Part shown: positions 6,049 through 54,766 of the stretch, in pieces
Layout: each line of letters starts with the position of its first letter
Position numbering within the stretch: the stretch's first letter is position 1
Source: a virus
Taxonomy: Duplodnaviria; Caudoviricetes
Virus record (IMG/VR): IMGVR_UViG_3300037067_003221
Span: 1-64,000 of that record
Length of the DNA stretch: 64,000 nt
Reading direction: 5' to 3' (one strand)
Made by a program: the position numbers and the translations under genes
Notes under the pieces: generated by a model
Database searches by the model: none
What the model saw: only the letters and a program-made list of their open reading frames with translations
Told to the model about the DNA's origin: nothing

Positions 6049-6077
6049 TTGACAAGAGGCAATTCCCGTGGTATAAT
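6049..6077 (+). promoter_or_regulatory. Consensus sigma70 promoter
   Basis: TTGACA-17 bp-TATAAT with extended TG. Confidence 0.8.
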
Positions 6078-15309: not shown

Positions 15310-15621
15310 ATGAATATCAAACAATTGCGAGAAGCCATCGCTTCGCTACCTGACGGTATGGACGTGCGAATCATTGGAGAAGAGTTTAACGACGTGTGGC
15401 ATATCAATGGTGTTTGTATGCTTGGCAAGAAGCCGCATTTATTTACAGTAGATGAAGCTGCCGAGTTATGTAGAAAACCACCATCAGCAATTTACTGGTT
15501 GTGTACCCACGATAAGATCAATTGTTTTCACGACGGGATGCAATATCGTATTCCATCAGAAGAGGTTTACAAATTATATGAGCAGTATCACTTCACAACT
15601 GACCAGCAAGAGATTGATTAG
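15310..15621 (+). CDS. Excisionase-like helix-turn-helix protein
   Basis: FTVDEAAELC......IYW.C....I......YRIP..EV. Confidence 0.65.
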   Translation: MNIKQLREAIASLPDGMDVRIIGEEFNDVWHINGVCMLGKKPHLFTVDEAAELCRKPPSAIYWLCTHDKINCFHDGMQYRIPSEEVYKLYEQYHFTTDQQEID

Positions 15622-16486
15622 CCCGCCGTCTTGGCTGCAAGATAACATCATGTTTGAAGGTTTGCAAGGTAGCAATGCGTATGGCGTTGCGGTTAATACC
15701 AGCGACTTCGATATTGTTGGATTTTGTATCCCTCCGAAGGATATGATTTTTCCGCATCTTGCGGGGCATATCGAAGGGTTTGGTCGCCAACGTGAACGGT
15801 TTGTGTGCTACCAAAAGCACCATGTCATTGACCCTTCGGCACAGAGCGGTGCCGGTCGAGAGTACGATCTGAACATTTATAACATTGTTCACTACTTTCA
15901 TTTGGCAATGGACAACAATCCAAATATGCTGACGAGCCTATTCCTACCACAAGATTGCGTATTGTTTACTACGCAAGTTGGTAACATGGTTCGAGAACGT
16001 CGTCGTATCTTCTTGCATAAAGGTGCATGGCACCGCTTCAAGGGATATGCGTATTCTCAGCTTAGTGAAATGGGTCGGAAGCCAGATGAAGGTAGCAAGC
16101 GTGACGCGCTTGTTAAGAAGTTTGGCTTTGATGTTAAGTTCGCTTACCATCTTGTCCGCCTCATGTATGAGATTGAGCAAATCCTGACGACAGGTGATTT
16201 AGACCTTCGGCGTAACTCGGAGGAATTGAAGGCCATCCGACGTGGAGAAGTTCCAGAGGACGCTATTCGTAGATTCTTTTCCGAGAAAGAAAAGTTTCTT
16301 GAAGGTTTGTACGAGCAATCCGATTTGCCGTGGGGTCCGCGAGAGAAGGAAATTAAACAACTTCTACTCGACTGTTTGGAAACTCATTATGGGTCACTAG
16401 AGAAATGTATTGTAACTGACCAGATGCCGCTGCAAGCCCTTCGGGATATTGCACGTATTGTTGACGAACATCGGAGTATGCTATGA
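15578..16486 (+). CDS. DNA polymerase beta superfamily nucleotidyltransferase (YcgL/RlaP-like)
   Basis: GS.AYG.....SDFD motif, NNPN, GFDVKFAYHLVRL, L.AIRRGE. Confidence 0.8.
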   Translation: MSSITSQLTSKRLISPPSWLQDNIMFEGLQGSNAYGVAVNTSDFDIVGFCIPPKDMIFPHLAGHIEGFGRQRERFVCYQKHHVIDPSAQSGAGREYDLNIYNIVHYFHLAMDNNPNMLTSLFLPQDCVLFTTQVGNMVRERRRIFLHKGAWHRFKGYAYSQLSEMGRKPDEGSKRDALVKKFGFDVKFAYHLVRLMYEIEQILTTGDLDLRRNSEELKAIRRGEVPEDAIRRFFSEKEKFLEGLYEQSDLPWGPREKEIKQLLLDCLETHYGSLEKCIVTDQMPLQALRDIARIVDEHRSML

Positions 16487-20155: not shown

Positions 20156-20537
20156 GAATAAAGCACCAAGAGGTATTAAATTATGATTACTGATTCAAGT
20201 TTAGTCATTACACTAAGAGAATTAACTAAAGCCTTTTATGCAAAAGAAATACTTAAAAGAGAACAAGAGGCTAAGAGGGCAAAATCAGACGCAGAACAAT
20301 GGGTTCAAAACCGATATGCAGAGATTTTGGAAAACTTGCCAATATATGCTGCACAAGGTAAATATACCTACTCAACCACAACTAATGGAAAGGGAGAAGC
20401 AACATGGGAGGTTCAAGAATTGATAAAGAGGCTCTGCGCGTTAGGCTTAAAGGCTCACTATAAACTTCAACAGTATCCTAACGGTTGGAATAGACCATAT
20501 CATGTGTCTCTTATCAATATTTATTGGGGTTGAAATC

Positions 20538-21059
20538 ATGTTACGAATTTGTTTATACGGAGGGCCGGGTGCTGGTAAAAGCACACTGGCCGCTGCTGTT
20601 TATGCGGCGTTGAAAGATGAAGGCATCAATGTTGAATTGGTTCGTGAGGTTGTAAAGGCTTGGGCGTATGAAGGCAAGCGGCCCGATGAATGGGACCAGA
20701 TATATACCTTCGGGCAACAACTCTACGAAGAGCATCGGCTGGCGAAGGCGGGCGTTAATGTGGTGGTGACAGACTCCCCATTATTACTACAGTGTTTCTA
20801 CTCAGGCTTTAACGCCGGTGGTTTACTGATGTTTGCAAAACGCTACGAGACGTTGCATAATAGCATCAACTTCCTCGTCGAGCGAGCGAAACCGTATTCC
20901 CATATTGGCCGATTTCAGTCCGAAGCGGACGCTGTTGCGATGGATACTCAGATGGAAGCCTATATGCACTTCCTAGAACTTGAACATTGGCGCGTTAAAG
21001 ACGCTACAACCCTAACTGAAATCTGCTTAGAGCAACTTTTACTCCGAGGAATTGAATAA
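20538..21059 (+). CDS. P-loop kinase/ATPase (AAA_28, NadR-kinase-like)
   Basis: GGPGAGKST, E..K, TDSP, GR.Q. Confidence 0.75.
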   Translation: MLRICLYGGPGAGKSTLAAAVYAALKDEGINVELVREVVKAWAYEGKRPDEWDQIYTFGQQLYEEHRLAKAGVNVVVTDSPLLLQCFYSGFNAGGLLMFAKRYETLHNSINFLVERAKPYSHIGRFQSEADAVAMDTQMEAYMHFLELEHWRVKDATTLTEICLEQLLLRGIE

Positions 21060-21720: not shown

Positions 21721-23540
21721 AAAACTACTTGGGCAAGATTTAGGGTGGCATTGGACTGTATTCAAATGGTGCGGACGACCGTTCGGGCTTCCGATCAAAT
21801 ATACAGGGGTTATGCCTATCATTCGTTGGCATTTTTATTATCGGTGGAAGGCACGACGCGAACGTATTCGCCGAAGTAAACTTGTGCCCATGCAAGTGCG
21901 GTTAGGCCGCGAAGTACAGAGGAGCTAACATGGAATTTATGATTCTTTACATCTTGTTGACGATTCGTGATTTTATTGTACAGAACGCACCGCTGTTAAT
22001 TCTGGCCGGGGCCGGGGCCATTGTCTCGGCTGCCTTTTGGTATATCGGCCATCGTAAACCGAAGAAAGAACAACTGCCGCCGCTGCTTACCACTTGGACT
22101 ACGCGGGATGGTAGAACAATGTTTATTAGCGATATGACGGACGATCATTTGAAGAACGCGATAAATTTTCTATCGCGTAGAATCAAGGACTTGCAAGGTA
22201 TGCGGGCTAAACTATTCATTGAACAAAATCGAAGAGGTATCCGATAATGTATTGTGCCTATATCATCAAGAACAAAGAACTTGACCTTGACATTCCGACT
22301 CTTGAACTTTACTACGCAATGCCTGCATTGGTCGCAATGTACAATGGCCACTTGGAGATTGAAGATAAGCCTCATATTAACAGTGTTAATGAGTTGGCTA
22401 TCTTCCCGACCACCATCGAGATTATGACGCATCCGTGCGGTCTGCTTGTCGTCCTGTGGTCGCACAATGGAGCCGGAGAGGAGACTGTCGATGGATGCTA
22501 CGGCGGTTAGGAAACGAATTGAATCGGCCACGAAGTTAGTTAAATCGTGGCCGCTGTGGAAGCAAAACATTCTGGTACAAAGTGCCAGTCCAACAGTTAA
22601 AGTACCAAGGAAACCAATTCATGTTCATAGTGACACATTGCCCGACCGACGTGGCGAAGATTAAGGAAATCGCAAAAGGTGCTGCCGACCCAGTCTCCTG
22701 TGAAGAGCATTTGCTGTTCATCAATCGCCGTGCTTGGGAGTTAATTCAAGCCAGAGAGGAAGAGGACAAGCGGCACCGCAAGGCTTGTGATGATATTGCT
22801 GCCGCTGTCTCAGCATTATATAAGGATTGCCCGCACCCCGACAAGGGGAGCGAGTATTGGAGTTTTGCTTATGACAGTGGCTACGAATGTATGGTCTGTG
22901 GTTGCAACAATATGCGACCGGGAAGGAAGCCACTTGTATGAAACAACTCACATTAGGCGATGAAACTAAATTGTATTTTCTCGCCTACCCTCGAACCCTT
23001 GGTGCGAGCGTAGAGTTGGATGACCTTAACATTTCAGTTGAACTCGGTCGTCAAGAGATTTACGATTTATACAATTGGCTTGCTGACATAATTCTCGACG
23101 ATTTAATCGAGGATGAAAAGAACCTTAACTCTTAGGTGCAACATGAAGTGCTATATTTTGATTGGACATGACAAACGCGAGAGTGATATTCTGCGGGTTG
23201 TCTTTAATGCAGACGATGCACGGGCTGCACTAGAATCGGCTCAAGAGTCGGGCGACGGATACTTATATTACAGTGTGCAAATCTGGACCGAAGAAGGTTT
23301 GCTTACTATTAGACACAAACCGGAGTTTATTGTATGAAACTTTGTGACATGCTGGAAATACTTAGACGGCTTGACCAGAATTTTGAAATACGTTCTGTTT
23401 ATGAGACAGCAGTAGGTGTGGTGGTCAATGCTATTCCTGCTCAAGAGAGTTTTCAAGTTTGTGCTGGCACTGAAATGAAAATTTTAATTGCTACCCAGCA
23501 TGAATCAGAACCTTATGACGATTACGACTGTGGGTGGTGA
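21713..23540 (+). other. Run of small hypothetical CDSs
   Basis: Overlapping start/stop ORFs of 55-120 aa with no recognised motifs. Confidence 0.5.
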
Positions 23541-23544
23541 TATT

Positions 23545-24537
23545 ATGTTACTGACAAGAGATCAATTCCGAGAAGCTGTGTTCGCCCGCGATAATAAGCG
23601 ATGCGTCATGTGTGGTGATCTGGGTGTTGATGCTCACCATATCACTGAACGCAGATTATTCGACGACGGTGGCTACTACGTGGACAACGGGGCAACCCTG
23701 TGTGCCAAACACCATCTTCAAGCAGAGCAGACTATCCTAACGTGTGAAGCCATTCGTGAAGCGGCTGGTATTACGGCGTTGGTATTGCCAAGCCATTTTT
23801 ATCCAGATGACCGAACGGACAAGTGGGGCAATGTATATTTGCCCAACGGGCAACGTATGCGGGGCGAATTGTTTTACGACGAAAGTGTACAACGTGCCCT
23901 GGCTCCGGTATTGTCCGAATTTACAACTCGCGTCAAGTATCCGCGAACGTGGCATTTGCCGTGGTCGCCCGGAGCAACTAGCGACGACCGAGTGTTGGAG
24001 AACACTAGCCACTTTTGGAACCGAGAGGTTGTTGTTACTACGAAGATGGACGGCGAATGCACTACGATGTATCCCGACTTTCTTCACGCCCGCTCCATAG
24101 ATTCTCGTAATCATCCCAGTCGTAACTGGGTGAAGAATCTGCACGGGTCAATTGGTTATCTGATTCCGAGTGGGTGGCGTATTTGTGGTGAGAACTTATT
24201 TGCGAAGCATAGCATTAAGTATGATTCGCTGCCGTCCTATTTCATGGCATTCTCTATTTGGAATGACGCGAATGTATGTTGGTCCTGGGATGCCACAGTT
24301 GAATGGTGTAAGTTGATCGGCATCGAGCATGTGCCAGTTATTTGGCGAGGAACATTTGATGCTGTGAAAATAATGGAATGCTATCAGCCGGGCCAAGAAG
24401 GATATGTGGTGCGAGTGGCCGATGAATTTAGATTCTCAGAGTTTCGCAAGTCGGTGGCTAAGTATGTCAGAGAGTCTCATGTACAGACTCATGGCCACTG
24501 GATGCGGCAGGCAGTTGAAAGGAATGGGCTGGCATGA
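23545..24537 (+). CDS. HNH domain fused to ATP-dependent RNA ligase
   Basis: N-terminal RD..RC..C....DAHHI..R....N..TLC..HH; ligase KYPRT.HL.WS, TKMDG (motif I), GEN, EGYVVR, AKYVR. Confidence 0.85.
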   Translation: MLLTRDQFREAVFARDNKRCVMCGDLGVDAHHITERRLFDDGGYYVDNGATLCAKHHLQAEQTILTCEAIREAAGITALVLPSHFYPDDRTDKWGNVYLPNGQRMRGELFYDESVQRALAPVLSEFTTRVKYPRTWHLPWSPGATSDDRVLENTSHFWNREVVVTTKMDGECTTMYPDFLHARSIDSRNHPSRNWVKNLHGSIGYLIPSGWRICGENLFAKHSIKYDSLPSYFMAFSIWNDANVCWSWDATVEWCKLIGIEHVPVIWRGTFDAVKIMECYQPGQEGYVVRVADEFRFSEFRKSVAKYVRESHVQTHGHWMRQAVERNGLA

Positions 24538-27165
24538 CAGAAAAACCAAAAGTGATTACGTTGCCCAGAAGCCACGACGATAATGCTGGCTGGTCAAAGT
24601 ATTTTCGTGAATATCCAGACATTGATGTTAGTGAATACTGCGACGTTTATGCTTGCCCGTTGTGCGGTTGGTACGCTTTTCATTCACTTTATAACTGCGG
24701 GCATTGCCGTGGTAAACTTGAACGGTTGCGTATTTTAAGAACATACTACGATGAATGGAAAACTGGAAGAATGAGAACTCCGGGGTTATAAACATGGTCA
24801 CAGGATTTGCTAACCTGAACACCACAACTGAATAAAATATTTTGAAAAGGAACAAGCATGATTTTTGAAACGTCGCGTAATATTCCACTGAAACCAACTC
24901 TATCTGTACGCAAGTGTGATGGCAGTGGATTAGAAGTTTGTATGTCTATTCGTGAGAATCGACGTATAACATTTGCAATAACAAAACAAGAAGTCAAACA
25001 ACTTCGGGATTCCTTAAACAATTGGTTGGAGAAAGAATAATGAAAAATCTTTGGGACTTTATTGTTGAAAAAACAGGCTTTGATCGGCACGTTTGTAAAG
25101 AGGTTGTTTTTGGTTTGCTCTACAACGGTATGATTATTGATGTATGCCGAAAAAATACTTTGATGATCGAAGATGTGATTGATATACGCATGGCATTCGA
25201 TGAATACATGCTGATGCTTCGTAAGGAAAGGACTGAATAATGTTGTACGGGACTTTTAATGTAAGCAACTCGATGATTGATGAATACAATGGAGAGAAGT
25301 TGGACGCAATCTTCTCGTTACCTTGTATGTTGTCTTTGGCACATGCCAAGGAAATGTGCAGTCCTGAGATTAAAACTGTTCATTGTGGCGATACTCAGCC
25401 GATTGCGTTGACTATGCGTATTTTAATTACTATCGACGGCCTCGCTGCCGAAATGCTTGGAGAAGAAAAATGTTAATTCCATTTTGCTGTTGTTCGTTGT
25501 GTACAGTTATGGGGTATATCCTTGGGCGAATCGTTGGATATACCTACTATCAAAAGGCCACCATTGAAAGGTTGAAGAATGAGCAAGTTTCTTGAAACAT
25601 TGGGCGCAGTTATCCTTTGTGTCGGGCTTTACGCTCTACCTGGATGGTTTATGGCAGAGGTACTCAGCGGCTTAACGTATGGCGGCTTGCCTCCTGACGA
25701 CTATTATCAAATCATGTGGACGTGGCCTATGTGGCTGCTCAGAATATGCGGGATTTAATATGGAAATAGACCTAACAATTGTGAAGAAATTCATGGCGTT
25801 GAAAACAGCAGCAAAGTGTTTGACACACGACGAGATTGATAACCAAACCATTGCATTGCTGCTAGTTGCCAACCGGCTTAATGAACTACTGGCTTGCAAA
25901 CCAGACCCTTGCGGGAGAACTCACGAATGGAAGTGACCCATGAATAAACTGCAAATCGAACATCCTCGGACGCTTAGGCAGCCGACGATGATTATGACCG
26001 ACACTGGCATGACTGCTTGTGTGACTGTAATGAATACCGACGGCGCGCATATAATGTTCCTTCAAAAGAAGGAAGTGGAACAAGTTGTCGAATGGTGCAA
26101 GCAATGGCTTGAGAAAGGTGTTGGAGAATGAAATTCAAATGGAAGAAAGCAAAGTGTGAGGGCGACCGAAAGGTTATTCGTAAGTTCCTACTGATACCGA
26201 GAACTTTTAATCGGGAAACACGGTGGCTTGAATTTGCTAATGTAGAGTATGTCTGCCGGAAGTTTCGTAAGTATGATGACGACTGGGGTATCTTTTATTA
26301 TGTGCTGCGTTGGCGAGCAGAAGGGTTCGTGGACTAATATGTTTAATATTGCAATTGATCTTGGTAATCCGTATGAGCATGTTAAGGTCGATGTACCTCA
26401 TGCCACTCTTCATTATCTTGAGAGTGGCGTGGCAAAGATGACTGTAACACTTACAGTAAAGGATGCTGTGCGGTTGCGTGACTGGCTTATTACAGCCATC
26501 CCGACCACCTGCCTATCAGTGATAGAAGAGGGGCGGAAGAATATGGGATTAACAGTGTCGGAATATTGCCGACGATTCTGTTTCCAGAATTGTGCCAACT
26601 GCGAAGATTATGGTTGCGGCGATAACACGAACACAAGGAATTAAGATGCTACCGAAATTATTTAATTGGACCCAAGAACTAATCTATGTGGACCACGACT
26701 CTATGAGTCCACCCACACTTAATAGTTTAGTTGGCACCCCGGTAAACTATCGAGGTTATCGCGGTAAGGTTATTAGTAACACCTACCTATCTATCACGGT
26801 TCGCTTTGACGGGTGGTTGACGTGGCTCTGGAAACTAATTTTGAGGAAGAACTAAGATGACGACTCTCGAACAACGTATAGCCGATTTGAAACTTGGCTG
26901 GGTCTGGCACTATAAAGCCTACACGGCGGTCCACAACGGTTTCGGCTTTGTCATTTATTACAAGGCAGGTCAAAACTGGCTGGCAGTCCTTAAACCTAAA
27001 ATTGTTGCCGAGCAACAAAGATGCCATAGTACGACTGGCAATGCCATCACTGGCTTTTGGATTAACACTGGATATTATACAGAACGTATGTTTGAAGTTC
27101 CGGTAACTCCTGAATTTCTTACTCATGTAATCGAAACCGCTAACCCCGAAATGCTTTCACTATGA
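24534..27165 (+). other. Run of small hypothetical CDSs
   Basis: Dense co-directional small ORFs. Confidence 0.5.
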
Positions 27166-27884
27166 ACGACTCACTTGGCGACCGAATGAAGAACTTTTAC
27201 GAAGGCCCCGCCCGGCACTATTTAACTCGGCGGACTCCGGTAATTGTACGCCTGGACGGTAGGGCATTCCACACATTGACGAAAGGGTTTCAAAAACCCT
27301 ATGACGCATCATTCATTGAAAATATGGATGCCGCTGCTCGTTGTTTATTTGATGAAATGCAAGGCTGCAAGATGGCTTATATCCAGAGTGATGAAGCCAG
27401 CTTCGTGCTGACGGATTACGACACCTTGACAACGGAAGCGTGGTTTGGCTATAACAAGTCGAAGGTGGAGAGTATCTCTGCCGCTACTATGTCGGTGTAC
27501 TTCACCATCATGGCTGGCTTCGCATTGCCTAAGCCGCCCGTGTTTGATGCCCGTGCCTTTAATATCCCTGAGTCTGAGGTTGCTAACTACTTCCTTTGGC
27601 GGGCAAAAGATTGGCACCGTAACTCGATTCAGATGTTGGCACAGCACAACTTTACTCACAAAGAGTTGCAGGGTAAGAGTATCCAAGAGTGTTTGGCGAT
27701 GTTGGAGAAGATTAAGGAATACTGGGACCAGCGGCCCGACCTTATTAAGAACGGCACCTTCCTAATTAAACGTGAGGGAGTTATCCACACGCTGACTAAT
27801 GTGCGAGATACCTACAAAGAGATTGAAGCCGTGTGGAACGAAGTCAATCCAACGGACGAACCAGAAGATACGTGGGGGCTATGA
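27162..27884 (+). CDS. tRNA(His) guanylyltransferase Thg1-like protein (3'-5' polymerase)
   Basis: RMK..E, RLDGRAFH, YIQSDE, K..S..A, FDAR, YF.WR..D..RN. Confidence 0.9.
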   Translation: MNDSLGDRMKNFYEGPARHYLTRRTPVIVRLDGRAFHTLTKGFQKPYDASFIENMDAAARCLFDEMQGCKMAYIQSDEASFVLTDYDTLTTEAWFGYNKSKVESISAATMSVYFTIMAGFALPKPPVFDARAFNIPESEVANYFLWRAKDWHRNSIQMLAQHNFTHKELQGKSIQECLAMLEKIKEYWDQRPDLIKNGTFLIKREGVIHTLTNVRDTYKEIEAVWNEVNPTDEPEDTWGL

Positions 27885-30358
27885 TGACTGAGTTGACATT
27901 TGACCGAGACAATGAAGTTAATCCCAGTCTATGGATACGGCAGCATCCCAAAGGTCGAGTAATCCTTTCACTAGTAGATAGGTGGGACTTATATGAAGTA
28001 ACTCTTGAAGATCAAGAAGTGAAAGACCTTCACGAATGGCTAGGAAAGGTGCTGCAACAATGAATTATACGCAACTTATTGCTGATCTTGCCCGGCGATA
28101 TACGTTGGCTAAAACGGATAATGCAGTTATGCGTAACTCAAGGACGCAAAGCGAAGAAGTATTGGCCTATTCAAGGCTGTGTTGGATGATCGATGCCGAG
28201 AAGTTCGGCTGGAATCCAGAAGATATGGAAGAATGCGTAGCAGAAAGGTTCTAATGTTAGACAAACCGCTATCACTGAACGTCACATTTACGATTCCTAT
28301 TGAAATTTGGAACCTCAAATACGATTTATCCCGTCTTGGGCAATTCCTTGGGTGGCATTTCTCGGATTTCGAGGATGGTCGGTATCCTTTTGACACCGAA
28401 CTTGCCAAACACGCCATCGAAATGGCGATTAAGAACACGATTTGTCAGTTGGTAAGTGATGTTGAGTATGATAAACATCGTGGAGAGTACGTCACACCTG
28501 ATTTTGGCGGAAAAATCGCTAAAGGTTGTATAACTTCGGAAGAACTTCTCAAGAAATTGGTCGTTTGCATACGCGAAGGCATGACATTTGCAGTAGAAGA
28601 GGATAAAGAATGAACATATTGATTATTAGCCGAAAACCACTGGGTATTCCGTCACATGTTGAAACGCCTGACTACGATATTTTCTTTCGGTCACGTCCCA
28701 GCGGATTAAAAACTTTACCGGCTGACTATGCTATTTGTTTGCCCGGCTGTACACCAGAACAGATTGCTTTGGCAACTGAAAGAACCCGGCCCGTTGGAGG
28801 CGAAATAATGATACTTAATGCGGCTATTGGATATGAACCTGGGGATGTATGTAACCGGAATGGTTGTAAGGGTATTATCGAAGAACACGAAGTCGAGAAT
28901 TGCTCCTGTCATATCTCGCCGCCTTGCTCCCAATGTACGGAAGATAGGACCTATTGCTCCGAATGCGATTATCGTGGAAAGGATGAAGCATGATTACTGG
29001 CATCTATATGCGCGTTAATACGTCTATCGGCATCTTTAGGTTGCCGTGTGTTCGTGAAGAAGTAACCGATTGCGTGGTTGACTTGACGTTCAACTGGATT
29101 GTCTTTGAAGAGCCTGTGATTGTTTATACAATTCAGCCCTTCGCTGAAATCGTTGAATCGCCCTCCGGCGTGATTCGGGACGAGCCGCTTGCAAACTCAA
29201 CTGAGTTGCAGCCCGGTGATAGCATGTATTCAATTGAGGCATTTGAATGTGGATGCTTTACTGCGTGTCTGGTTATGATTAACCAAGACATTTTGAAACA
29301 AATTAAGAAGTATGTGGAGGGTGCGGAATGAAACTGTTGAATTTATTTGGGTCTGTGTTTGGCATTGTGGCAACACAGTTACTAGGTTGTTACTGTACGT
29401 TACCTGAACCAGAATTACTTCCGGCTGCGTGGCAACGTATGCTTGGCTGTGGCGTGGCAATGGCTTTATTTGCTGTATGCCTCTATTGGTTTATGGCTGC
29501 ATTAGGAAGGATGCTAGAAGAATGAACACTCAAACACTAGTTGAGTTCTGTCGGGAGGTAGCGGCGGCTGGTAGCTTCGATGCTTTGACCGACGATCAGA
29601 AAGCCCTGCTTCTGATGATTGAGGCCAATACGCCTAAGACAAATTGCCCGCTATGCCGATACAAGCAACCTGATGGCGTGTGTCGGTGTGACTAATCTAT
29701 TGGAGGTTACTATGGAACGATGCAAGAATGTAAGTCGGTATCGCGGGATTATGAAACCGCGATGTAACAATGGCCGTGGCTGCAAAGCCTGTTGGGATAT
29801 TTACTACGCCAAGAAATTGAAAGTTAAATAATGTATCTCTTTGAACGAACGCAGACCGGAGATAAGGTAGAGTTTCGCCACCCTGGCGGATTCTTCTTTA
29901 GTTTCATTATAGCCCCTGGCACTACGGAAGATATGTACTTGCAAGCCATTGGCAATTGTGGTGTATGGACTCGGCTGCCGCAACTGTTGGACCGAAGCAT
30001 CACCGCCGACGAATGGAAGGAATACCGGGAAGAGATCGACCTACGGTGGCCCTCATGTAGTCTGGCCAAAGGGAATATGGAACCCAAATTTTTCGACGAC
30101 GCTCGGAAAACTATCGACCGTATTCATAATGCCCCGTTTGATTGTGGTGAGATTCGAGCAGATGGCTTGTGGATGATTGAGTTGTCATATCGAGAAGAGA
30201 AGAAATTCCACGATGACTTGATGCTGCTATTGGATAATAGAGAGTACAACATGCAGCCGGGTGATACGCTGAAAGTTAGTTTTAACCAGACACATCAACG
30301 TGGGCTGGCCCTTCGGGAAGCAATCAATAAACATAGGGCTGAGAAGTATGCAATCTAA
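27881..30358 (+). other. Run of small hypothetical CDSs, several Cys-rich
   Basis: Dense co-directional ORFs, e.g. 28610-28993 with CSCHISPPC. Confidence 0.5.
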
Positions 30359-40629: not shown

Positions 40630-42033
40630 CTAGACGGCAACCTCCTCTCTAACGGTAAGACCGTTACGAGCGACAATCGGGATATAATAGTCAACAAGAT
40701 CAGAAGCGTTACAATCCTCCCAGAGCTTGCAAAGGAACTCCCACTTTTGGGTGGGCGACTTGGCAAGCAGTGTATTCCTTACAATCCGCCAATCGTTACG
40801 AGCGGCCCAATCGATAAAGAGAGATAAGCCCCTAATCCAGTTACAAATCTCCTTACCGTTACAAGTCCCATGATACAAACGAACCTCAAAGGTTGAATGA
40901 TAGACATAGGCGTTAATGTTCAACCATTTATAACGATCCTTACGATGGGCATAACAGGCCCAATCGGTAACGCCGAAAATATCGGACAATTCCGTAGTAT
41001 CCGCTTCACAGTAATGACGCGAACGACGGTCACTATCGACAAAATGCTTCCAAACGTCATACATGAAACGCATGGCACAATAGATAGACTTCATGCTTTC
41101 AGTATTTTCCTCACGCATATCAAAATGCACATGAAGCCCACAACTCCGATTTACGGTAAAACCCTTATCATCGGCAGCATTGCAAAATGCCATAATAGCG
41201 TCAAGACCCTTATCGCCGGAAAGGACGGAAGAAACGAACTCTTTGCCACTAATGCTACCATCGTCCTTTGCGCCAAAATAGAACTCATCCTCTAAATCGC
41301 AATAATCCTCACAAGAGGAAGTTTCGATTTCAACGCCAAATTTCCTATGACCGATACGATTGTAAGAATTGTTATCGTGCGAAAAACGGAGCGCGTCGAA
41401 ATTGTGGTCATTATGGTTACGACGATAACAAGAGCTACAAAGCCCCTCACCCTCATAATCGTCATTATCGTAAGTATCGCCACAACTATCGCAAACGAAA
41501 AATCTGTCACACCAGCACGAATCGCAATAATCGTTACCATCGGAACCCGTCATCGATTCGCGCGTCCATTCGTCACAACCCTCACACTTCACCCAACCGT
41601 TACGACTAGCACAACGGTCGCAATAGACATTATCGCCACAATTGTTCAAATCGTCACCACTGAACCAATCGTTGCAATGGTCACAGCTATGATAGTCGCT
41701 TGCTTCGGCACATTCGATACAGTTGGTATCGCCGTCACAATCGACACAATCGGAATGCCAAGTATGGCACGATTCACATTCCTTAAAATCGTTTTTATCG
41801 GCACAATCGAGACAGTACATAGTACCGTCACAATCGACAAGATCATCGTGATAGGTGCCGCAACCCTCACAAGCGGCATAGCCCTGAGAATCGGCACAAT
41901 CGGGACAGATAACCCGATTGTCAAGCATATCCGAAACCTCACAACCGGGTTTATCGGTTGTATCCCACCATTGCTCACAATCGGGACAATAGGCATCGGC
42001 GGGCGAGCGCGAAATATCCGTTTTAGATAGCAT
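40630..42033 (-). CDS. Putative amidoligase (COOH-NH2 ligase, Amidoligase_2-like) with 12 N-terminal CxxC motifs
   Basis: FGVEIE, DGSI..EFVS.VL.G, CGLHVH, RY..LN, TFEVR. Confidence 0.8.
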   Translation of the reverse strand: MLSKTDISRSPADAYCPDCEQWWDTTDKPGCEVSDMLDNRVICPDCADSQGYAACEGCGTYHDDLVDCDGTMYCLDCADKNDFKECESCHTWHSDCVDCDGDTNCIECAEASDYHSCDHCNDWFSGDDLNNCGDNVYCDRCASRNGWVKCEGCDEWTRESMTGSDGNDYCDSCWCDRFFVCDSCGDTYDNDDYEGEGLCSSCYRRNHNDHNFDALRFSHDNNSYNRIGHRKFGVEIETSSCEDYCDLEDEFYFGAKDDGSISGKEFVSSVLSGDKGLDAIMAFCNAADDKGFTVNRSCGLHVHFDMREENTESMKSIYCAMRFMYDVWKHFVDSDRRSRHYCEADTTELSDIFGVTDWACYAHRKDRYKWLNINAYVYHSTFEVRLYHGTCNGKEICNWIRGLSLFIDWAARNDWRIVRNTLLAKSPTQKWEFLCKLWEDCNASDLVDYYIPIVARNGLTVREEVAV

Positions 42034-44987: not shown

Positions 44988-45869
44988 TCAGTTTGTCAAC
45001 CAGTCGAATTGAATTGTTCCATCAGGCATGATAACCACGGCCCGCACGTTATTGCCGTCCCCGGCTTGCTTGTACTTGGCAAGCTGCCGTAGGCTCGAAA
45101 ACGAGAATCGTAGCGTCTTTTCGCCGTACTTGTATTCTTCATACCAATAGTAATCGCCTATTTTTTGCTGAATAAATCGAAAGCGGGGGTCAGCTACCAC
45201 CCGATCTAAGAGTGGTTTCCAGCATAAATTTCGACTCCCCTCCGCATCGGTAGGGAAGCGTAAGGAAAAACGAGTATGATCGAACGAATTGATAAAGGCG
45301 ATAAAGTTATCAAAATTGTTATCCTGCAAAACCGTTTGAATAGTTGCGTTGCGAAAATGCGGCAGGTTCCAGTATTGACCCCGCTCAACACCAAAATAGT
45401 TATGAACGGATAAATTGATACGACGGGCATTCTGCAAACAATCGTGATACGGTGCGCCCGACGTATTAAGGTTATAAGTCGTATTTATGGCATTAAGCCG
45501 ATAGAATAAAAATGACAGATGATCGGGATAGAGCAACGGTTCGCCGCCCGTGATTGACAACGTAGGGAATAGCCCGGCGTATAGCAGCGCACAGAACAAC
45601 GAGTCAAGTGTCTGACATTGCTTGATTTCGTCCCGATTTTCATCGCCTACGGGATTCAATCGTTCGACGCAGAACGGGCAAGAGAAGGGGCATTTTTTCG
45701 TCACTAAAAGCTGAACATTCAGCCGCCGATAAATCGACGTATAGGCTTGCTCCGCAAATTCAAACGGATAGACGTTATGCTGCGTATAATACGCATACTC
45801 CGGCCCGAAAAACTTCTCGATAGTTTCGAGCGACGTATCAATTCGTTGACTTAGATCGAATGTTCTCAT
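44988..45869 (-). CDS. Radical SAM enzyme
   Basis: CPFSCPFC (CxxxCxxC), SITGGEP, NTSG. Confidence 0.85.
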   Translation of the reverse strand: MRTFDLSQRIDTSLETIEKFFGPEYAYYTQHNVYPFEFAEQAYTSIYRRLNVQLLVTKKCPFSCPFCVERLNPVGDENRDEIKQCQTLDSLFCALLYAGLFPTLSITGGEPLLYPDHLSFLFYRLNAINTTYNLNTSGAPYHDCLQNARRINLSVHNYFGVERGQYWNLPHFRNATIQTVLQDNNFDNFIAFINSFDHTRFSLRFPTDAEGSRNLCWKPLLDRVVADPRFRFIQQKIGDYYWYEEYKYGEKTLRFSFSSLRQLAKYKQAGDGNNVRAVVIMPDGTIQFDWLTN

Positions 45870-45888
45870 ACAACAACTATACCATATT

Positions 45889-46179
45889 TCAGGCGGTTGT
45901 CAAGTGTCTATGGCAACGACTCAGCATATATTCGATGCGCGAGCAATCGAAACAATCATCACATTCCAGACACAACTCACAATCGTTGCAATAGGTACAA
46001 TTCGTACAGGTGGTCAGACCCCCAGAGGCTCGGCAATTAGTACAGCCGTCACAGAAGTCACATCTGATACAGTTTTCACAATTGGAACAGTTGACGCATC
46101 CGAAACAATTGCTACAATTCTCGCAATTGAAACAGTTGACGCAGTTAGTACAGTTGATATTGCCGTCGCTATCGGTCAT
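45889..46179 (-). CDS. CxxCxxC-repeat protein
   Basis: MTDSDGNINCTNCVNCFNC... Confidence 0.7.
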   Translation of the reverse strand: MTDSDGNINCTNCVNCFNCENCSNCFGCVNCSNCENCIRCDFCDGCTNCRASGGLTTCTNCTYCNDCELCLECDDCFDCSRIEYMLSRCHRHLTTA

Positions 46180-46799
46180 TGGCAGTTTCCCAATACTTGA
46201 CCATCCGAGTAACCTACTTGCCAAGCCTCTTCCCATGCCATACGCGCAAGGGATTTAGCCCGCTCCCTATCTTGTATCCGGTTGAAAATAAATAGGAGTG
46301 GGCTTTGCTCTATCTTTTCATCCCACCATGCGTCAAAGACTTCATCCATTGTTTACCCTTTCGCTTCGGGATGCAAGGCGTAGCGCGTTATGCAAGCTAA
46401 CATCCCGGCCTATCCGCACTTTGATTGCTCCTGCTACCAGCATCACCGCCCTACGGCGGGCAGTCCGAATGTTAGCAGAGTTGTACCGTTTGTAAAGGCC
46501 GAATGAATCGCACGTTACGCGCCATTCGTTTCCTTCCAAGTTGTCAACGTAAAATCGCAAGGTTCCAAAGGTGCCAGTTGCGTTTTGTCCGCTCCGGTCT
46601 ATGTCCCATTGTATGGCGTTTACCATTAGTAGTCCTCTTCCATACTGCCGTCAGAATAGCCCTCACTCCATCCTTCGGAATGACCCCGATTCCAGGCAGC
46701 AAGCCAAATTTCATGGGCGAGTTCCTTACCCTCAACCATATCGGGGTAATGTTCAAGCCACCACAATTCAAAATCTCGATTCATAGTTACCTCTTTCAG

Positions 46800-46872
46800 G
46801 GTGGCCGACGGGACTCGAACCCGCGCATCGCGGATTCACAGTCCGCCGCCTTACCAACTTGGCTACGACCAC
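46800..46872 (-). tRNA. tRNA-His(GTG); no encoded G-1 or CCA
   Basis: Cloverleaf GTGGTCG/CGGCCAC, anticodon arm GCGGA-CTGTGAA-TCCGC, GTTCGA T-loop, C73; position -1 is T. Confidence 0.92.
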
Positions 46873-46874
46873 AG

Positions 46875-46946
46875 CGGGCAAATAAGGACTCGAACCCTAA
46901 CCAACGGGTTTGGAAGCCGTCATGCTAGCCATTACACCATTCGCCC
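46875..46946 (-). tRNA. tRNA-Trp(CCA)
   Basis: GGGCGAA/TTTGCCC acceptor, G73, anticodon arm ACGGC-TTCCAAA-CCCGT with C31:C39 mismatch. Confidence 0.85.
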
Positions 46947-47143
46947 GATTACTCGTTATTCGTGTACTCAATCCAAGCCAGCCGCCAATATAAATCCAGC
47001 ATGGCAGACTTGACTTCGGCAGTGCAAACTACATTTTCCAAAACGTCCAACAACCTTTTCGTTGCGGCAATAATATCGTCACGTTGTCTTTCGGCGATAT
47101 AAAGTTTTGTTTCGGCAATATAAAGTTTTGTTTCCATATTCAA

Positions 47144-48109
47144 CTATACCATATTTTCAATGGTTGTCAAGTTTAATTTTTCCGACACCACATTATTGAA
47201 CGCCACAAGCCGCTGATTGCAGCCGTAACGGCAAACGCCATGCTTGCACGGCTCTTTGCTCTTGATACCATCCCGATACAAGTGGGAACAAGTCGATTCC
47301 TCACCATCCGGCCCGATAACCCGCTCACTCATGGAGAGGTAGCACGGCTCAGACAGATTGTTTTCGGGGAAGCGAGTACCAGCGATAAGCCGCTGTTTGC
47401 TGTCCATCGTTTCGCACAGTAACGCTAATGATTCCTCTGGCAGTAGCGATTTCATTTCCGGCACAATCCGCCAGAAAAAATTCTCAATATCTCCCGGCGA
47501 AAACACGAAATTCGGATTAGTTCCCTTGTACACCGAGAAAAACAGGGCGTACAAGTCGGGGAATACTTCATTGGAATATCGAATGAAGTCGGGCGCGTGC
47601 CGGTAGTTCTCCCTTGTCAGGGTGTACGTAATCGAAGTGACCGTATGTTTACACGCCCACTTGATATTGTTTACAACCTCATGGAAAGCGTCACGACCGA
47701 CCAAATTGTTCCAATAGGATGCGCTGCACGAATCGAGCGATACTTTCAACCGGCGAATATGCTGCGCAGGCGGGGCAATGTAGGCGTTAGTATTCAGGTG
47801 AAACTGATACTCGTTGCCATGCTCCTCGATGTAGGGGTACAGCCACGGCACAATGGACGGCTCGCCCCCGGTAATGTGGATAATCGCCGTTTTCCCGTAA
47901 GCCGCTACAATCTCTTCAAACCGCTCTTTGGAGAGGGTTTTCGGAGTCTGCGCGATATTGCAATACTTGCATCGAAAGTTGCAGCCTTCCGTAATAAACA
48001 CCGCAACCCGGCGAACGGGCGGGGCAATACCCGCGCGAACGCAGTCAACGGTTTCTTTCATCCGGGCGGCAAAGTTATCCCAATAAAGTGAGGGGCGTAT
48101 TGTGTTCAT
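47144..48109 (-). CDS. Radical SAM enzyme with Cys-containing twitch/SPASM-like C-terminus
   Basis: CNFRCKYC, ITGGEP, NTN, VSLD; C...I.PDG...C..C...C...C. Confidence 0.85.
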   Translation of the reverse strand: MNTIRPSLYWDNFAARMKETVDCVRAGIAPPVRRVAVFITEGCNFRCKYCNIAQTPKTLSKERFEEIVAAYGKTAIIHITGGEPSIVPWLYPYIEEHGNEYQFHLNTNAYIAPPAQHIRRLKVSLDSCSASYWNNLVGRDAFHEVVNNIKWACKHTVTSITYTLTRENYRHAPDFIRYSNEVFPDLYALFFSVYKGTNPNFVFSPGDIENFFWRIVPEMKSLLPEESLALLCETMDSKQRLIAGTRFPENNLSEPCYLSMSERVIGPDGEESTCSHLYRDGIKSKEPCKHGVCRYGCNQRLVAFNNVVSEKLNLTTIENMV

Positions 48110-48144
48110 ACTGCAATTATACCTTATTTTCAAGGGTTGTCAAG

Positions 48145-49242
48145 TTAGTCCCCAGCCTTAAAATTGTAAACCGGCTTGAGAACGTCCGTAATATCCGCCG
48201 TAGGCTCGATATTCGCTACAATCTCTTCCATTGCTTTATACGCCATAGGCGATTCATCCAACGTGTCGGGCGTAACGCTAGTGGTATAAATACCCTCCAT
48301 AGAGGCAGTAAAATCTTCCATGTTCAGCTTGCGTTTCGCTTCTTTCCGGCCCATCAACCGGCCCGCACCGTGCGGGGCTGATTGGTTCCACTCATAGTTG
48401 CCCTTACCCACGCAAAGCAAGCTACCATCCCGCATATTGATCGGCACAATAAACGGCTCACCCGCCCTTGCCGACACCGCGCCCTTTCGCAGAATGTTTT
48501 GCATATCGATGTAGTTGTGAACAGTTTGAAACTTGACAAGGCCGGTAAGCGGCACACCGAGAAGTTCCGTCACAATCCGACGAACCATTGTAACACGGTT
48601 CAGCGTTGCGTATCCCTGCACAGTCCGCATATCCGTCAAGTAATGATCTTTGAACGCGCCCGTTAAATAGCACAGGTCACGATGAATTTCAAGCCGCTCC
48701 GGGCAAAGTTCAGCGGCAAGGTGCTGATAATAATCAGCTACCTGCTTACCAAGGTTTCGGCTTCCCGAATGCACTACCAACCAAAGATCACCGGCAGTAT
48801 CGTGATTCACTTCGATGAAATGATTACCGCCGCCGAGCGAACCTAACGCAAGATCATAGTCGGCTTGTCGAATGCTCGCACCGCAATACAGGCCCGATAC
48901 ATCAAAGTGAGTCTGCGCGGTTTCATTGTTTCGGAAACCAAACGGGATTTTTTCGCGGATAAAATCGTCAAGCCGCTTCAAGTCAATCTCACGCTCGACG
49001 CGAACAACCGCCACCCCACAACCAATATCTACACCCACTAAGTTGGGGACAACCTTATCGCCCACCATCAGGGTGGTGCCGATAACGCAACCGGCCCCGG
49101 CATGGCAATCGGGCATGATACGCACCTTTGAATTAGCAGCAAACGAATGATCGATAAGTTGCTGTATCTGCGCGATAGTCGTTTCGTCCGGCGTATCCGT
49201 GAAGATTTTAGCCGCGGTGTAGCGTCCGGTAAGTTCGATCAT
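48145..49242 (-). CDS. rtcB: RNA ligase RtcB (2',3'-cyclic phosphate/5'-OH ligase)
   Basis: MPDCH.G.G, VGVDIGCG, GSLGGGNHFIE, HSGSR, HNY, RKGA, SAPHGAGR, DESP.AYK. Confidence 0.95.
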   Translation of the reverse strand: MIELTGRYTAAKIFTDTPDETTIAQIQQLIDHSFAANSKVRIMPDCHAGAGCVIGTTLMVGDKVVPNLVGVDIGCGVAVVRVEREIDLKRLDDFIREKIPFGFRNNETAQTHFDVSGLYCGASIRQADYDLALGSLGGGNHFIEVNHDTAGDLWLVVHSGSRNLGKQVADYYQHLAAELCPERLEIHRDLCYLTGAFKDHYLTDMRTVQGYATLNRVTMVRRIVTELLGVPLTGLVKFQTVHNYIDMQNILRKGAVSARAGEPFIVPINMRDGSLLCVGKGNYEWNQSAPHGAGRLMGRKEAKRKLNMEDFTASMEGIYTTSVTPDTLDESPMAYKAMEEIVANIEPTADITDVLKPVYNFKAGD

Positions 49243-49251
49243 AATGTTTCC

Positions 49252-49530
49252 TTAGTTTGTTAAGTACCGGGTTGTTAAATCCTCACGCAATTCCATAAGC
49301 ATTTCCGTATCTTTTAGAAGTTTCCATTCCATCGTTTCAATAGCGAAAACCGTAGCCCGTTGCTTTGCAGTTTGCAAATCGTTGGCGACGAAAATTCGAT
49401 CCCGTCCGTTGAATGTGGCAACCCATTGGTCGCTGCCCGGCAAATTCTTACGTAAAAGAATTTCATGCGGCTGAAAATTCCGCGAACCAGTTGCCACCCA
49501 TTTTGAATCAATTTGTTCCCATTCGAGCAT
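49252..49530 (-). CDS. Hypothetical protein
   Basis: AAGGA RBS; lies between the ncRNA and rtcB. Confidence 0.6.
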   Translation of the reverse strand: MLEWEQIDSKWVATGSRNFQPHEILLRKNLPGSDQWVATFNGRDRIFVANDLQTAKQRATVFAIETMEWKLLKDTEMLMELREDLTTRYLTN

Positions 49531-49554
49531 TTTGTATTATTCCTTGTTATAAAA

Positions 49555-49681
49555 TGTAGCCGGGTGGGAGTCGAACCCACATAAGGCAACCGGCCTCTTT
49601 TGTGTTGGAGTCGAACCAACCCCCTCTTCCAGAGCTTCCCAGGGAATTGAACCCCGCACATTTTCCGCTAACGCCGACTAC
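49555..49681 (-). ncRNA. Novel tRNA-mimic RNA with three D-hairpin/T-arm modules
   Basis: 8-bp terminal stem GTAGTCGG/CCGGCTAC plus A; three 5-bp stems with TTC(G/A)A(C/T)T loops; starts 7 nt after a TATAAT box. Confidence 0.75.
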
Positions 49682-49911
49682 ATTTTAATTATACCTCATG
49701 TTTTCTAAAAGTCAAATCAAGGTCCAATTATTCCTATCGTCGGGGTCAAGTGAACGACCCGCCCGGCACTCATTCCGACCCCGACAATCAGACCTACCGG
49801 AAACAATAAAAGGCGGGGCTAATGATGACCCCGCCTAACGGCATTACCGGCATTACCACCCAATAGTTACGGCTAAGGTATCCGGTTTCAGTCCCCGTAA
49901 CAGTCTGCCGA

Positions 49912-51253
49912 TTAGAAAAAATAGCTCATAAAATATGCTCTAGGGGCAGCCAGCAATTCGACCAGATAATAGGCATTTATCGGAATAGCAATTGCCGCCA
50001 CAATCCAACTGATTGCCATCCCGGCATACGAAAGGATGTAAGGCGAATTATCGTCCATGTAGTTTTGCGGCTTGGTAACTTTTGCGATGCGGCTCAACGC
50101 ATACTGTATCGCCAAGGCCACCACAATAAGCACCGTAATCGCAATGCCATGTTTGATAATGCCCGCCAACACAAGTTGGTTGAAAGTTTCCGGCACTTCG
50201 CTCACAATCAAGTTCACATAATCCACGCTAGTTCTCCTCAAAAGGGTCAAGTAAATTAGCCAATAATTTGTGTCAAAGCAGCTTTGCCCGCTTCGTATTC
50301 TGCCGGGGTTGCTTCCCGCATCCGGGTCTGCTTACCGCTCGGATGGTTCCAACTGCAATGGCAAATGGAAGGGCCTAATCCGTGAATTGTCCAAGCGGCA
50401 TTGCCACAAATGTCACAGATAACGAGTTTTTCGTTAGGTGTCGGTTGCCCCTTGATCTTGAAAGTAGGGTAGTCGATTTTGACTTTGGTTTTCTTCATCA
50501 TGCTTTCAACCAATTTCGATAATTCCGACGGCCATATCGCAGTTGAAACAATCTTCGGCGATTTCTTCCACGGTCATAGTCGGGGCAAATTCAAACCCCA
50601 TCGGAATGAGAAGATTGAATAAAGCCTCTACTGGCGTAGCGGCCTCAATCTTGTGCATCTTGACCACGTTATCAAAATAGTTCATAAGTGACACGACGTA
50701 CAGTTTCATGTTTTCCTCTTATTGTTGGAGTCTATTCAAGTATAGCACACTTTTCGGAGTTGTCAAGTATCAATCCGATATTCATCGTTGCAAATTGCAT
50801 CTTTCACCGCTTCGATGAAAGTTTCCCACCCATAAAAGGTATGGTCATAGTCTCGACAGGCTACCTTGAATGGCATGTGTATCCACCCCTGTTGATATTC
50901 CTCATTCCATACGGCATACCAGCCGGGGAAGAAATGCACCCGCTTACCTGCGCGCAGGCCAGCTTCGATTGCGACGATATGATGGATATTTTTCATTACG
51001 CGCGTAATACCTCATGGATTGATTCCAATTCGTCAACCCGCGCTTGGATAAATTCACCGGCTAATTTCAGCAAGTTGGCTTTGCCAGTGTCCAAACCAGT
51101 ACCCAACGCGATACCATCGACAATCAAAGAACCGAACGTAATACGCCCGCCGCAACGGTCGCTTCCGATATTATGCCATAGCAACAACACTAGCCCACGT
51201 TCCTCTATGCGGTAGTATTGCAGGGGGTAATGATCGGGGTGAGTTTCTTCCAA
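49912..51253 (-). other. Five small hypothetical CDSs, one with transmembrane segments (49912-50250)
   Basis: Abutting ORFs. Confidence 0.55.
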
Positions 51254-52628: not shown

Positions 52629-53570
52629 TCAGACTGTCAAGGCAACCGCCCGCTTAATCTTGGATTTTTTCGCAAAATACTGGAAAAGTTCCGGCCCCAC
52701 TATACGGCGGATATTGTGTTCCTTGTTCTCTCCGAACCAACTCTCCAAAGTGTTAAAGCCGGTACTTTCGACACCATCGACAAAACGTGCATGGGTCTTA
52801 ATCCAGTTGCAAATTTCCGGGGCGTGTAAACTTCCCTCATGCCCCCGCACTTCCACCGTGCCGTGATCGTTATAGGCCGACCAATTGATAAACTGGTAAC
52901 GGTCCTGATAGGTGGAAAATTCGCTAAAATCTGCGAATCGCAGGATTTCGCTGCGATCATAACGCATCCCACGGCTGTAAGAATTATTGTCGCGCGACGG
53001 GTGTACCAATTGCTGCCAGTAGGGGTAGGTCAAGTGGTAGGCATACGCCGTATTGCGGCATTGCTCGACTGATTTACCACGCATATCCAAATGGATATGC
53101 AAACCGCACTGCCTATCGACTTGAAACTTTCGCTTGTGGGCAAGTCGGCAGAATTTGCGGATTTCTTCAAGGCCCTTGTCGCCCTGCAAAATTGGGGAAA
53201 CAAATTCAAGGCCGTTAATGCTACCATGCTCATGCACCCCGAACGTGGTATGATTGCGTAGTGACGTATGGCCGGGACAGTTGGAGGTTTCAAGTTCCAC
53301 GCCAAATTTTCTCTGGCTACGGGTTTCGTCAAACGTATTTTCTCGAACATCCGGGGTTGACGTATCCCACAACCATTCATCTTGGCAATCGACGTAGCAA
53401 TTGTAGCATAATCGGCGGTTGCCGAAACGGTTCATATCGCTCTTATAGCCGACATAGCCGCAACCAGAGCAAGTAAAGAAACTTGCTTTGAAGCACTCTT
53501 GGCAGTAGTATCGGTGATAATGATGATACCGTGTCGTTCTGATCGTTTTGCCGCAATAATTGCAATTCAT
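52629..53570 (-). CDS. Putative amidoligase with 4 N-terminal CxxC motifs
   Basis: FGVELE, GSI.G.EFVSPIL.G, CGLHIH, RY..IN, GTVEVR. Confidence 0.8.
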   Translation of the reverse strand: MNCNYCGKTIRTTRYHHYHRYYCQECFKASFFTCSGCGYVGYKSDMNRFGNRRLCYNCYVDCQDEWLWDTSTPDVRENTFDETRSQRKFGVELETSNCPGHTSLRNHTTFGVHEHGSINGLEFVSPILQGDKGLEEIRKFCRLAHKRKFQVDRQCGLHIHLDMRGKSVEQCRNTAYAYHLTYPYWQQLVHPSRDNNSYSRGMRYDRSEILRFADFSEFSTYQDRYQFINWSAYNDHGTVEVRGHEGSLHAPEICNWIKTHARFVDGVESTGFNTLESWFGENKEHNIRRIVGPELFQYFAKKSKIKRAVALTV

Positions 53571-54763: not shown

Positions 54764-54766
54764 AAG

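Follow-up and report, generated by a model that had tools for sequence, protein, structure and literature searches.

The window, that is, the whole 64-kb stretch of DNA analyzed here, comprises the first 64 kb of a phage genome of 147,030 bp with 45% G+C, and contains 14 tRNA genes, all of them on the minus strand, according to ARAGORN. Two of these genes, for tRNA-Trp(CCA) and tRNA-His(GUG), received the same calls from ARAGORN and Rfam. The tRNA-Trp gene occupies positions 46875–46946 on the minus strand (Rfam score, 52.6 bits), ends with G73 at 46875, and is followed by a C-U trailer, CCA not being encoded. These two nucleotides, C at 46874 and U at 46873, constitute the entire spacer (46873–46874, minus strand) between G73 of tRNA-Trp and G1 of tRNA-His, the gene for which extends over 46800–46872 on the same strand (64.8 bits; G1 at 46872 and C73 at 46800). 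When read along the minus strand, the junction is ...UUUGCCC-G73 / C-U / G1-UGGUCG-U8-A9..., with U (46873) at position −1 of tRNA-His and C at position −2. The initial annotation had claimed that tRNA-His follows tRNA-Trp after 2 nt and carries U at −1 and C73, and both the coordinates and the bases were borne out by ARAGORN, Rfam, and the minus-strand reading. Another register, in which 46872 would be G-1, was rejected because it breaks U8/A9 and the T-stem geometry.

The window tRNA-His has the GUG anticodon and C73 of canonical bacterial tRNA-His, an acceptor stem of seven standard pairs from G1:C72 to G7:C66 (GUGGUCG/CGGCCAC), and U8 and A9 in register; it lacks the G-1 that bacteria canonically encode opposite C73 with U at −2. 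For RNase P cleavage to shift to position −1, both the G-1:C73 pair and a U immediately before the cleavage site are needed (PMC3245924). Since U-1 of the phage tRNA-His is unable to pair with C73, RNase P would be expected to cut at +1 and to leave p-G1. On the 3′-side, C73 is followed by C, U, and G, so that CCA is not encoded. The same trailer, N73-C-U, is seen on 11 of the genome's 12 good tRNA genes (G000; for example, at window positions 46798–46799, 46873–46874, and 54764–54765), and in those 11 genes C74 is encoded and CCA is not. Searches of the genome found neither a HisRS gene (PF13393) nor a CCA-adding enzyme (PF01743), and owing to the lack of the latter, 3′ maturation of the phage tRNAs would depend on trimming and CCA addition by the host. 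Beyond the end of the window, the genome (G000) has a tRNA-Met(CAU) gene with an A1.C72 mismatch (76710–76783) and a Tyr-like tRNA gene with an A2.C71 mismatch (73924–74004). In protist mitochondria, 5′ editing that depends on a Thg1-like protein (TLP) corrects mismatched bases at the first three positions of the acceptor stem.

A gene for a bacterial-type TLP of 240 aa lies on the plus strand at 27162–27884, its start overlapping the stop of the upstream ORF (26857–27165). Its product matches the Pfam family Thg1 (PF04446) with E = 1.3e-28 and 100 bits against a curated cut-off of 29.2, and PHROG 4717, ‘tRNA-His guanylyltransferase,’ with E = 6e-75; this PHROG has been annotated already in many phages. 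The closest solved structure is that of the B. thuringiensis TLP (BtTLP; 4KGK, E = 1e-45 over residues 3–204), whereas the yeast and human Thg1 structures match far more weakly (4.5e-13 and 9e-12). The matches to PF04446, PHROG 4717, and 4KGK thus confirm the presence of a Thg1-like gene claimed for this position. Judged from sequence, the phage protein is nearer to the bacterial and archaeal TLP branch than to eukaryotic Thg1. D32, D77, and E78 of the phage protein align with the catalytic carboxylates D30, D75, and E76 of BtTLP, and E14 and R30 align with its nucleotide-site residues E12 and R28, whose roles have been described (PMC3701042). In an alignment of 28 relatives, no variation is seen at E14, R30, D77, or E78, and D32 is nearly invariant (at least 90%). 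The phage TLP appears to be an intact and active enzyme of the bacterial type. It resembles BtTLP (PDB 4KGK/4KGM; PMC3701042, PMC3061083) in the conservation of D30, D75, E76, E12, R28, and H35, and both show, where eukaryotic enzymes have HINNLYN, the TLP-type ‘W(R/H)xNS’ segment, but the two proteins are only ~45% identical, and the phage-encoded one carries a short acidic C-terminal tail. The best cellular TLP is only 48% identical to it, and the cellular matches, many of which are probably phage DNA in MAGs, are scattered across many phyla; for the low identity of the best match and this scatter, inference of the host from cellular TLPs was dropped.

The TLP gene belongs to a plus-strand block that also encodes an RlaP-family RNA-repair nucleotidyltransferase (15452–16486; PF10127, 7.8e-15), a P-loop kinase-like protein (20502–21059; AAA_28/AAA_33), an HNH-fused RNA ligase (23488–24537, 2.6 kb upstream of the TLP gene; phrog_24030, 6e-123), and an RF-1-like factor. 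The tRNA-Trp/tRNA-His pair is found on the opposite strand at a distance of 19 kb, downstream of the genes for an RtcB RNA ligase (48145–49242, minus strand; PF01139, 1.1e-60) and, between rtcB and the pair, a radical SAM protein (47144–48133, minus strand). Phage repair kits directed against anticodon nucleases comprise RlaP, kinase/phosphatase, RNA ligase, RtcB, CCA-adding enzyme, and Thg1, which is listed as the restorer of the 5′-end (PMC7824862, section 3.4.9). This phage has RlaP, the P-loop kinase, the HNH-RNA ligase, RtcB, and TLP; unlike those kits, its genome has no CCA-adding enzyme (PF01743). The minus-strand tRNA/rtcB genes are interspersed with two Amidoligase_2 paralogs (40630–42033 and 52629–53570) and with two radical SAM proteins, a second one being encoded at 44988–45869.

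Since the tRNA-His gene is situated within the rtcB transcription region and the phage has several tRNA-like non-tRNAs, the G-1-less tRNA-His might be conceived as a decoy or sensor, that is, as an RNA of a repair or anti-defense system and no substrate of translation. Its fully canonical tRNA score (64.8 bits), normal anticodon loop, and complete tertiary landmarks, as well as the recurrence of the same design within ordinary tRNA arrays of many phages, speak against such a role, which is very improbable.

In the minus-strand tRNA/rtcB block (window positions 45500–50200), four sigma-70-like promoters match 11–12 of 12 consensus positions; among the minus-strand sites, which are consensus matches only, are one at 47143–47170 (TTGACA-16-TATAGT with TG), ~190 nt upstream of tRNA-Trp, and similar ones at 48116–48143 and 49688–49715. 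The block that includes the TLP gene has a sole consensus site, likewise a consensus match only, on the plus strand at 6049–6077 (12/12), and the TLP gene is 21 kb behind it. Around the TLP gene (25000–29500), no sigma-70-like site exceeding 9/12 was found, and sites were fewer than in shuffled sequence. This layout would be compatible with different timing of the tRNA block and TLP, but a ‘temporal switch,’ as the initial annotation put it, is speculation.

Such a switch would be part of a dedicated arrangement, in which addition of G-1 opposite C73 by the phage TLP is a precondition for charging of the tRNA-His, both components have been selected together, and the delay in expression sets the time of histidine decoding. 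Beside the promoter layout, with the consensus sites at the tRNA block and the TLP gene 21 kb from the only one of its own block, several facts fit this idea. A U-1/C73 tRNA-His and an intact TLP are found in one genome, and enzymes of the BtTLP type place a G opposite C73 in vitro (PMC3061083, PMC3245924). Archaea without an encoded G-1 (e.g., Methanothermobacter; PMC3061083, PMC3245924) rely on TLP and likewise combine a C73 tRNA-His with a templating TLP in one genome. This archaeal pairing is lineage-wide and presumed necessary, whereas the two phage features proved statistically independent, as described below. Moreover, the neighbors of the TLP gene are repair genes and not tRNA genes, the tRNA being 19 kb off on the other strand.

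Two pattern scans blind to position −1 yielded 233 stretches with 86 distinct tRNA-His genes: 46 with C73 and an encoded G-1, 16 with C73 and no G-1, 14 with A73 and no G-1, and 10 with other combinations. G-1 is thus missing from 16 of the 62 distinct C73 phage tRNA-His genes sampled, or about a quarter. When 105 parent records of these stretches were searched for PF04446, a Thg1-family gene was found in 12. Counting as TLP-free only records rated at least 90% complete (CheckV estimate), the C73 genes without G-1 comprised two in TLP-positive and five in TLP-free records (G131, G159, G162, G168, and G171), and those with an encoded G-1 seven and ten, respectively. Among C73 genes there is, therefore, no positive association between lack of G-1 and TLP in these small and phylogenetically non-independent samples (odds ratio 0.57, Fisher p 0.67). 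The co-occurrence of G-1-less tRNA-His and Thg1 across phages, which had been proposed as a check of the pairing, was accordingly not observed, and their co-presence in the window phage is not beyond chance: both parts of a putative maturation module reside in one genome, but their co-occurrence does not exceed chance. At least 11 distinct TLP-positive phages encode G-1, and three others (G030, G149, and G158) have a G-1-less tRNA-His with A73. In two of the latter (L274 of G149, with direct terminal repeats, and L303 of G158; IMG/VR, ~202–207 kb), the tRNA-His has C1:G72, A73, and no G-1. An A73, G-1-less tRNA-His is accompanied by a HisRS for which G-1 plays no role (PMC3064791). Because the tRNA-His of G149 and G158 is of this Caulobacter-type identity, supplying G-1 cannot be the reason for the presence of TLP there. 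The window tRNA-His shares the lack of G-1 with the Caulobacter-type alphaproteobacteria (PMC3064791), but those have A73 and a changed HisRS, whereas it has C73 and the standard bacterial acceptor GUGG.

The same conclusion is reached from the TLP side. In 81 IMG/VR contigs encoding a relative of the phage TLP, tRNA-His was sought by ARAGORN in the flanks and, across the entire records, by a His-anticodon/T-loop pattern, with ARAGORN applied to the matches. A tRNA-His gene was found in only 11 of the 81 by this procedure, in which the pattern could miss odd T-loops, and none was seen in 21 of the 27 contigs with a completeness rating of 90% or more. A recheck with the Rfam tRNA model of five complete TLP-positive genomes (direct terminal repeats or 100% completeness estimate) found three without any tRNA gene (G009, G010, and G052), one with only tRNA-Pro, and one with 24 tRNA genes but no tRNA-His. 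This last genome (G023, behind L026) is 84.8 kb long with direct terminal repeats, and its 24 tRNA genes cover most amino acids. In a phage without tRNA genes, TLP can act on host RNA only. Where TLP contigs do have tRNA-His, three distinct genes have C73 without G-1 (G036, G043, and G042/G050), one has A73 without G-1 (G030), and four encode G-1 (G038, G076/G078, G022, and G061/G062). G-1 is thus absent from 3 of 7 distinct C73 genes in the TLP-selected sample vs. 16 of 62 in the unselected one, a slight excess that amounts to a weak, non-significant trend in the direction of the initial annotation.

Cultured phages provide further cases. In the Bacteroides phages crAss001 (MH675552) and DAC15 (MT074136), tRNA-Met or tRNA-Ile is followed by C-U and then by a C73 tRNA-His without G-1. 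Their junction, A73-C-U-G1, and the C73, G-1-less tRNA-His represent the same design as in the window, although the upstream tRNA is a different one and the crAss001 tRNA-His encodes CCA, which the window tRNA-His does not. Unlike the window phage, neither phage has a Thg1-family gene, and none was found in a B. thetaiotaomicron genome searched as a control for their host type. In view of the same design, including U-1 and the 2-nt junction, in TLP-free complete phages, the lack of co-occurrence, and the occurrence of TLP without any tRNA-His, a dedicated and co-selected pair is unlikely. Other searches for relatives gave little: an exact 25-nt search of IMG/VR with the 5′ half of the window tRNA-His had no match; a single-protein search for close TLP loci returned one distant locus; a metagenome scan with a 20-nt anticodon-arm word gave seven stretches, none related to the window tRNA-His; contigs fetched for their homologs of the radical SAM gene that adjoins the tRNA pair lacked tRNA-His and differed in gene order; cultured phages gave no match to 20 kb of the window in megablast; and blastn of the Trp-His pair detected generic tRNA similarity only.

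The G-1-less class with C73 is regular at its junction. U is at −1 in 15 of its 16 distinct genes, and in 11 of 16 tRNA-to-tRNA-His junctions the spacer between the upstream discriminator and G1 is 2 nt or less (CU in seven, UU in two, and a single U in two), irrespective of an upstream tRNA that may be Trp, Ser, Ile, Lys, Pro, Asn, Arg, Met, or Cys. Such short spacers occur in only 21 of the 563 other tRNA-tRNA junctions in these loci (p = 8e-12); for G-1-encoding tRNA-His genes, 2 of 19 preceding junctions are this short (p = 5e-4). The loci in which this regularity was noted are the window (46873–46874), L134, L144, L145, L153, L205, L284, L305, L306, L352, L357, L428 (DAC15), and L429 (crAss001). 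A description of this U-1/2-nt-junction design was not found in the searchable literature. Since 11 of 12 tRNAs of the window phage have the N73-C-U trailer, ‘CU’ is the generic start of the upstream tRNA trailer, with tRNA-His beginning right after it. G-1-encoding genes mostly read A-U-G(-1), so that both classes have U just ahead of the cut expected from RNase P.

This regularity bears on the question of whether TLP acts on tRNA-His at all. A HisRS that is tolerant or highly loaded might charge the tRNA despite its lack of G-1, or a 5′-phosphorylated U-1 might replace G-1, and TLP would then only rebuild tRNAs truncated at the 5′-end by nuclease attack. Consistent with this, the same design is present in TLP-free phages, U-1 (15/16) is accompanied by a fixed 2-nt junction, BtTLP prefers truncated tRNAs, and the G-1 base mainly serves to position the critical 5′ phosphate (review, PMC9976931). 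Bacterial HisRS, however, loses much of its activity without G-1 (PMC3245924), and TLPs are documented to act on p-G1/C73 tRNA-His, so that with both in the same cell some addition could hardly be prevented. Complete inaction of TLP on tRNA-His is on balance rather unlikely, if somewhat less so than the co-selected pair. A related proposal is that the G-1-less C73 tRNA-His is a distinct, selected design with its own TLP-independent maturation, in which one cut between C74 and U-1 would serve both tRNAs, making the upstream one ready for CCA completion and giving tRNA-His a 5′-phosphorylated U-1 that replaces G-1 towards HisRS; this, too, is doubtful and has about the same low probability as the co-selected pair.

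The explanation that we regard as probable, with moderate confidence, is that the locus combines two independent features, a widespread tRNA-His design and a TLP that acts as a general template-dependent 5′-end repair enzyme of the repair kit, G-1 addition being a side benefit. It builds on the gene anatomy, the conserved catalytic residues, the lack of co-occurrence, and the repair-gene neighborhood, all of which are observed. The design, with C73, no G-1, U at −1, and a position directly behind another tRNA, would be cut by RNase P at +1 and seems to mature and work without a phage TLP in many phages. The TLP would belong to a large RNA-repair kit together with RlaP, kinase, HNH-RNA ligase, RtcB, and Ro60/Y RNAs, which probably counters tRNA-damaging defenses of the host. 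A general repair function is in keeping with BtTLP, which favors 5′-end repair 5–160-fold over N-1 addition and also acts on non-His tRNAs (PMC3061083). Enzymes of this type are known to accept p-G1/C73 tRNA-His in vitro, and for this reason TLP, when present together with the window tRNA-His, probably supplies it with G-1 as well; this addition would be neither a co-evolved maturation module nor a timing switch. Thus, of the proposal that the phage enzyme makes the phage tRNA chargeable, the chemistry is plausible, given the p-G1/C73 type of substrate and the retained catalytic residues, but the matched pair fails on co-occurrence, on G-1-less tRNA-His in TLP-free phages, and on TLP without tRNA-His.

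If the matched pair were real, phages would carry a private tRNA-identity system, and the data point the other way. The TLP and the repair kit are of known kinds, and the reading of tRNA and TLP as a pair is not supported. For annotation, this means that a phage ‘tRNA-His guanylyltransferase’ should be read as a general tRNA 5′-end repair enzyme. What merits an experiment is the design of a G-1-less tRNA-His placed tightly against its neighbor: the main HisRS identity element is missing from about a quarter of the C73 phage tRNA-His genes sampled, those of the cultured crAss001 and DAC15 among them, and the maturation and charging of such tRNAs are directly testable in a cultured, TLP-free system.

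Another recurrent class of phage tRNA-His has G-1:C73 with a U1.C72 mismatch (5′ G-UUGG...; L143, L165, L192, L219, L288, and L314, IMG/VR). The parent records of these loci contain no Thg1 gene. Three members lie directly behind another tRNA as N73-C-G(-1)-U1, which is the same geometry as that of the G-1-less class with the bases at −1 and +1 swapped.
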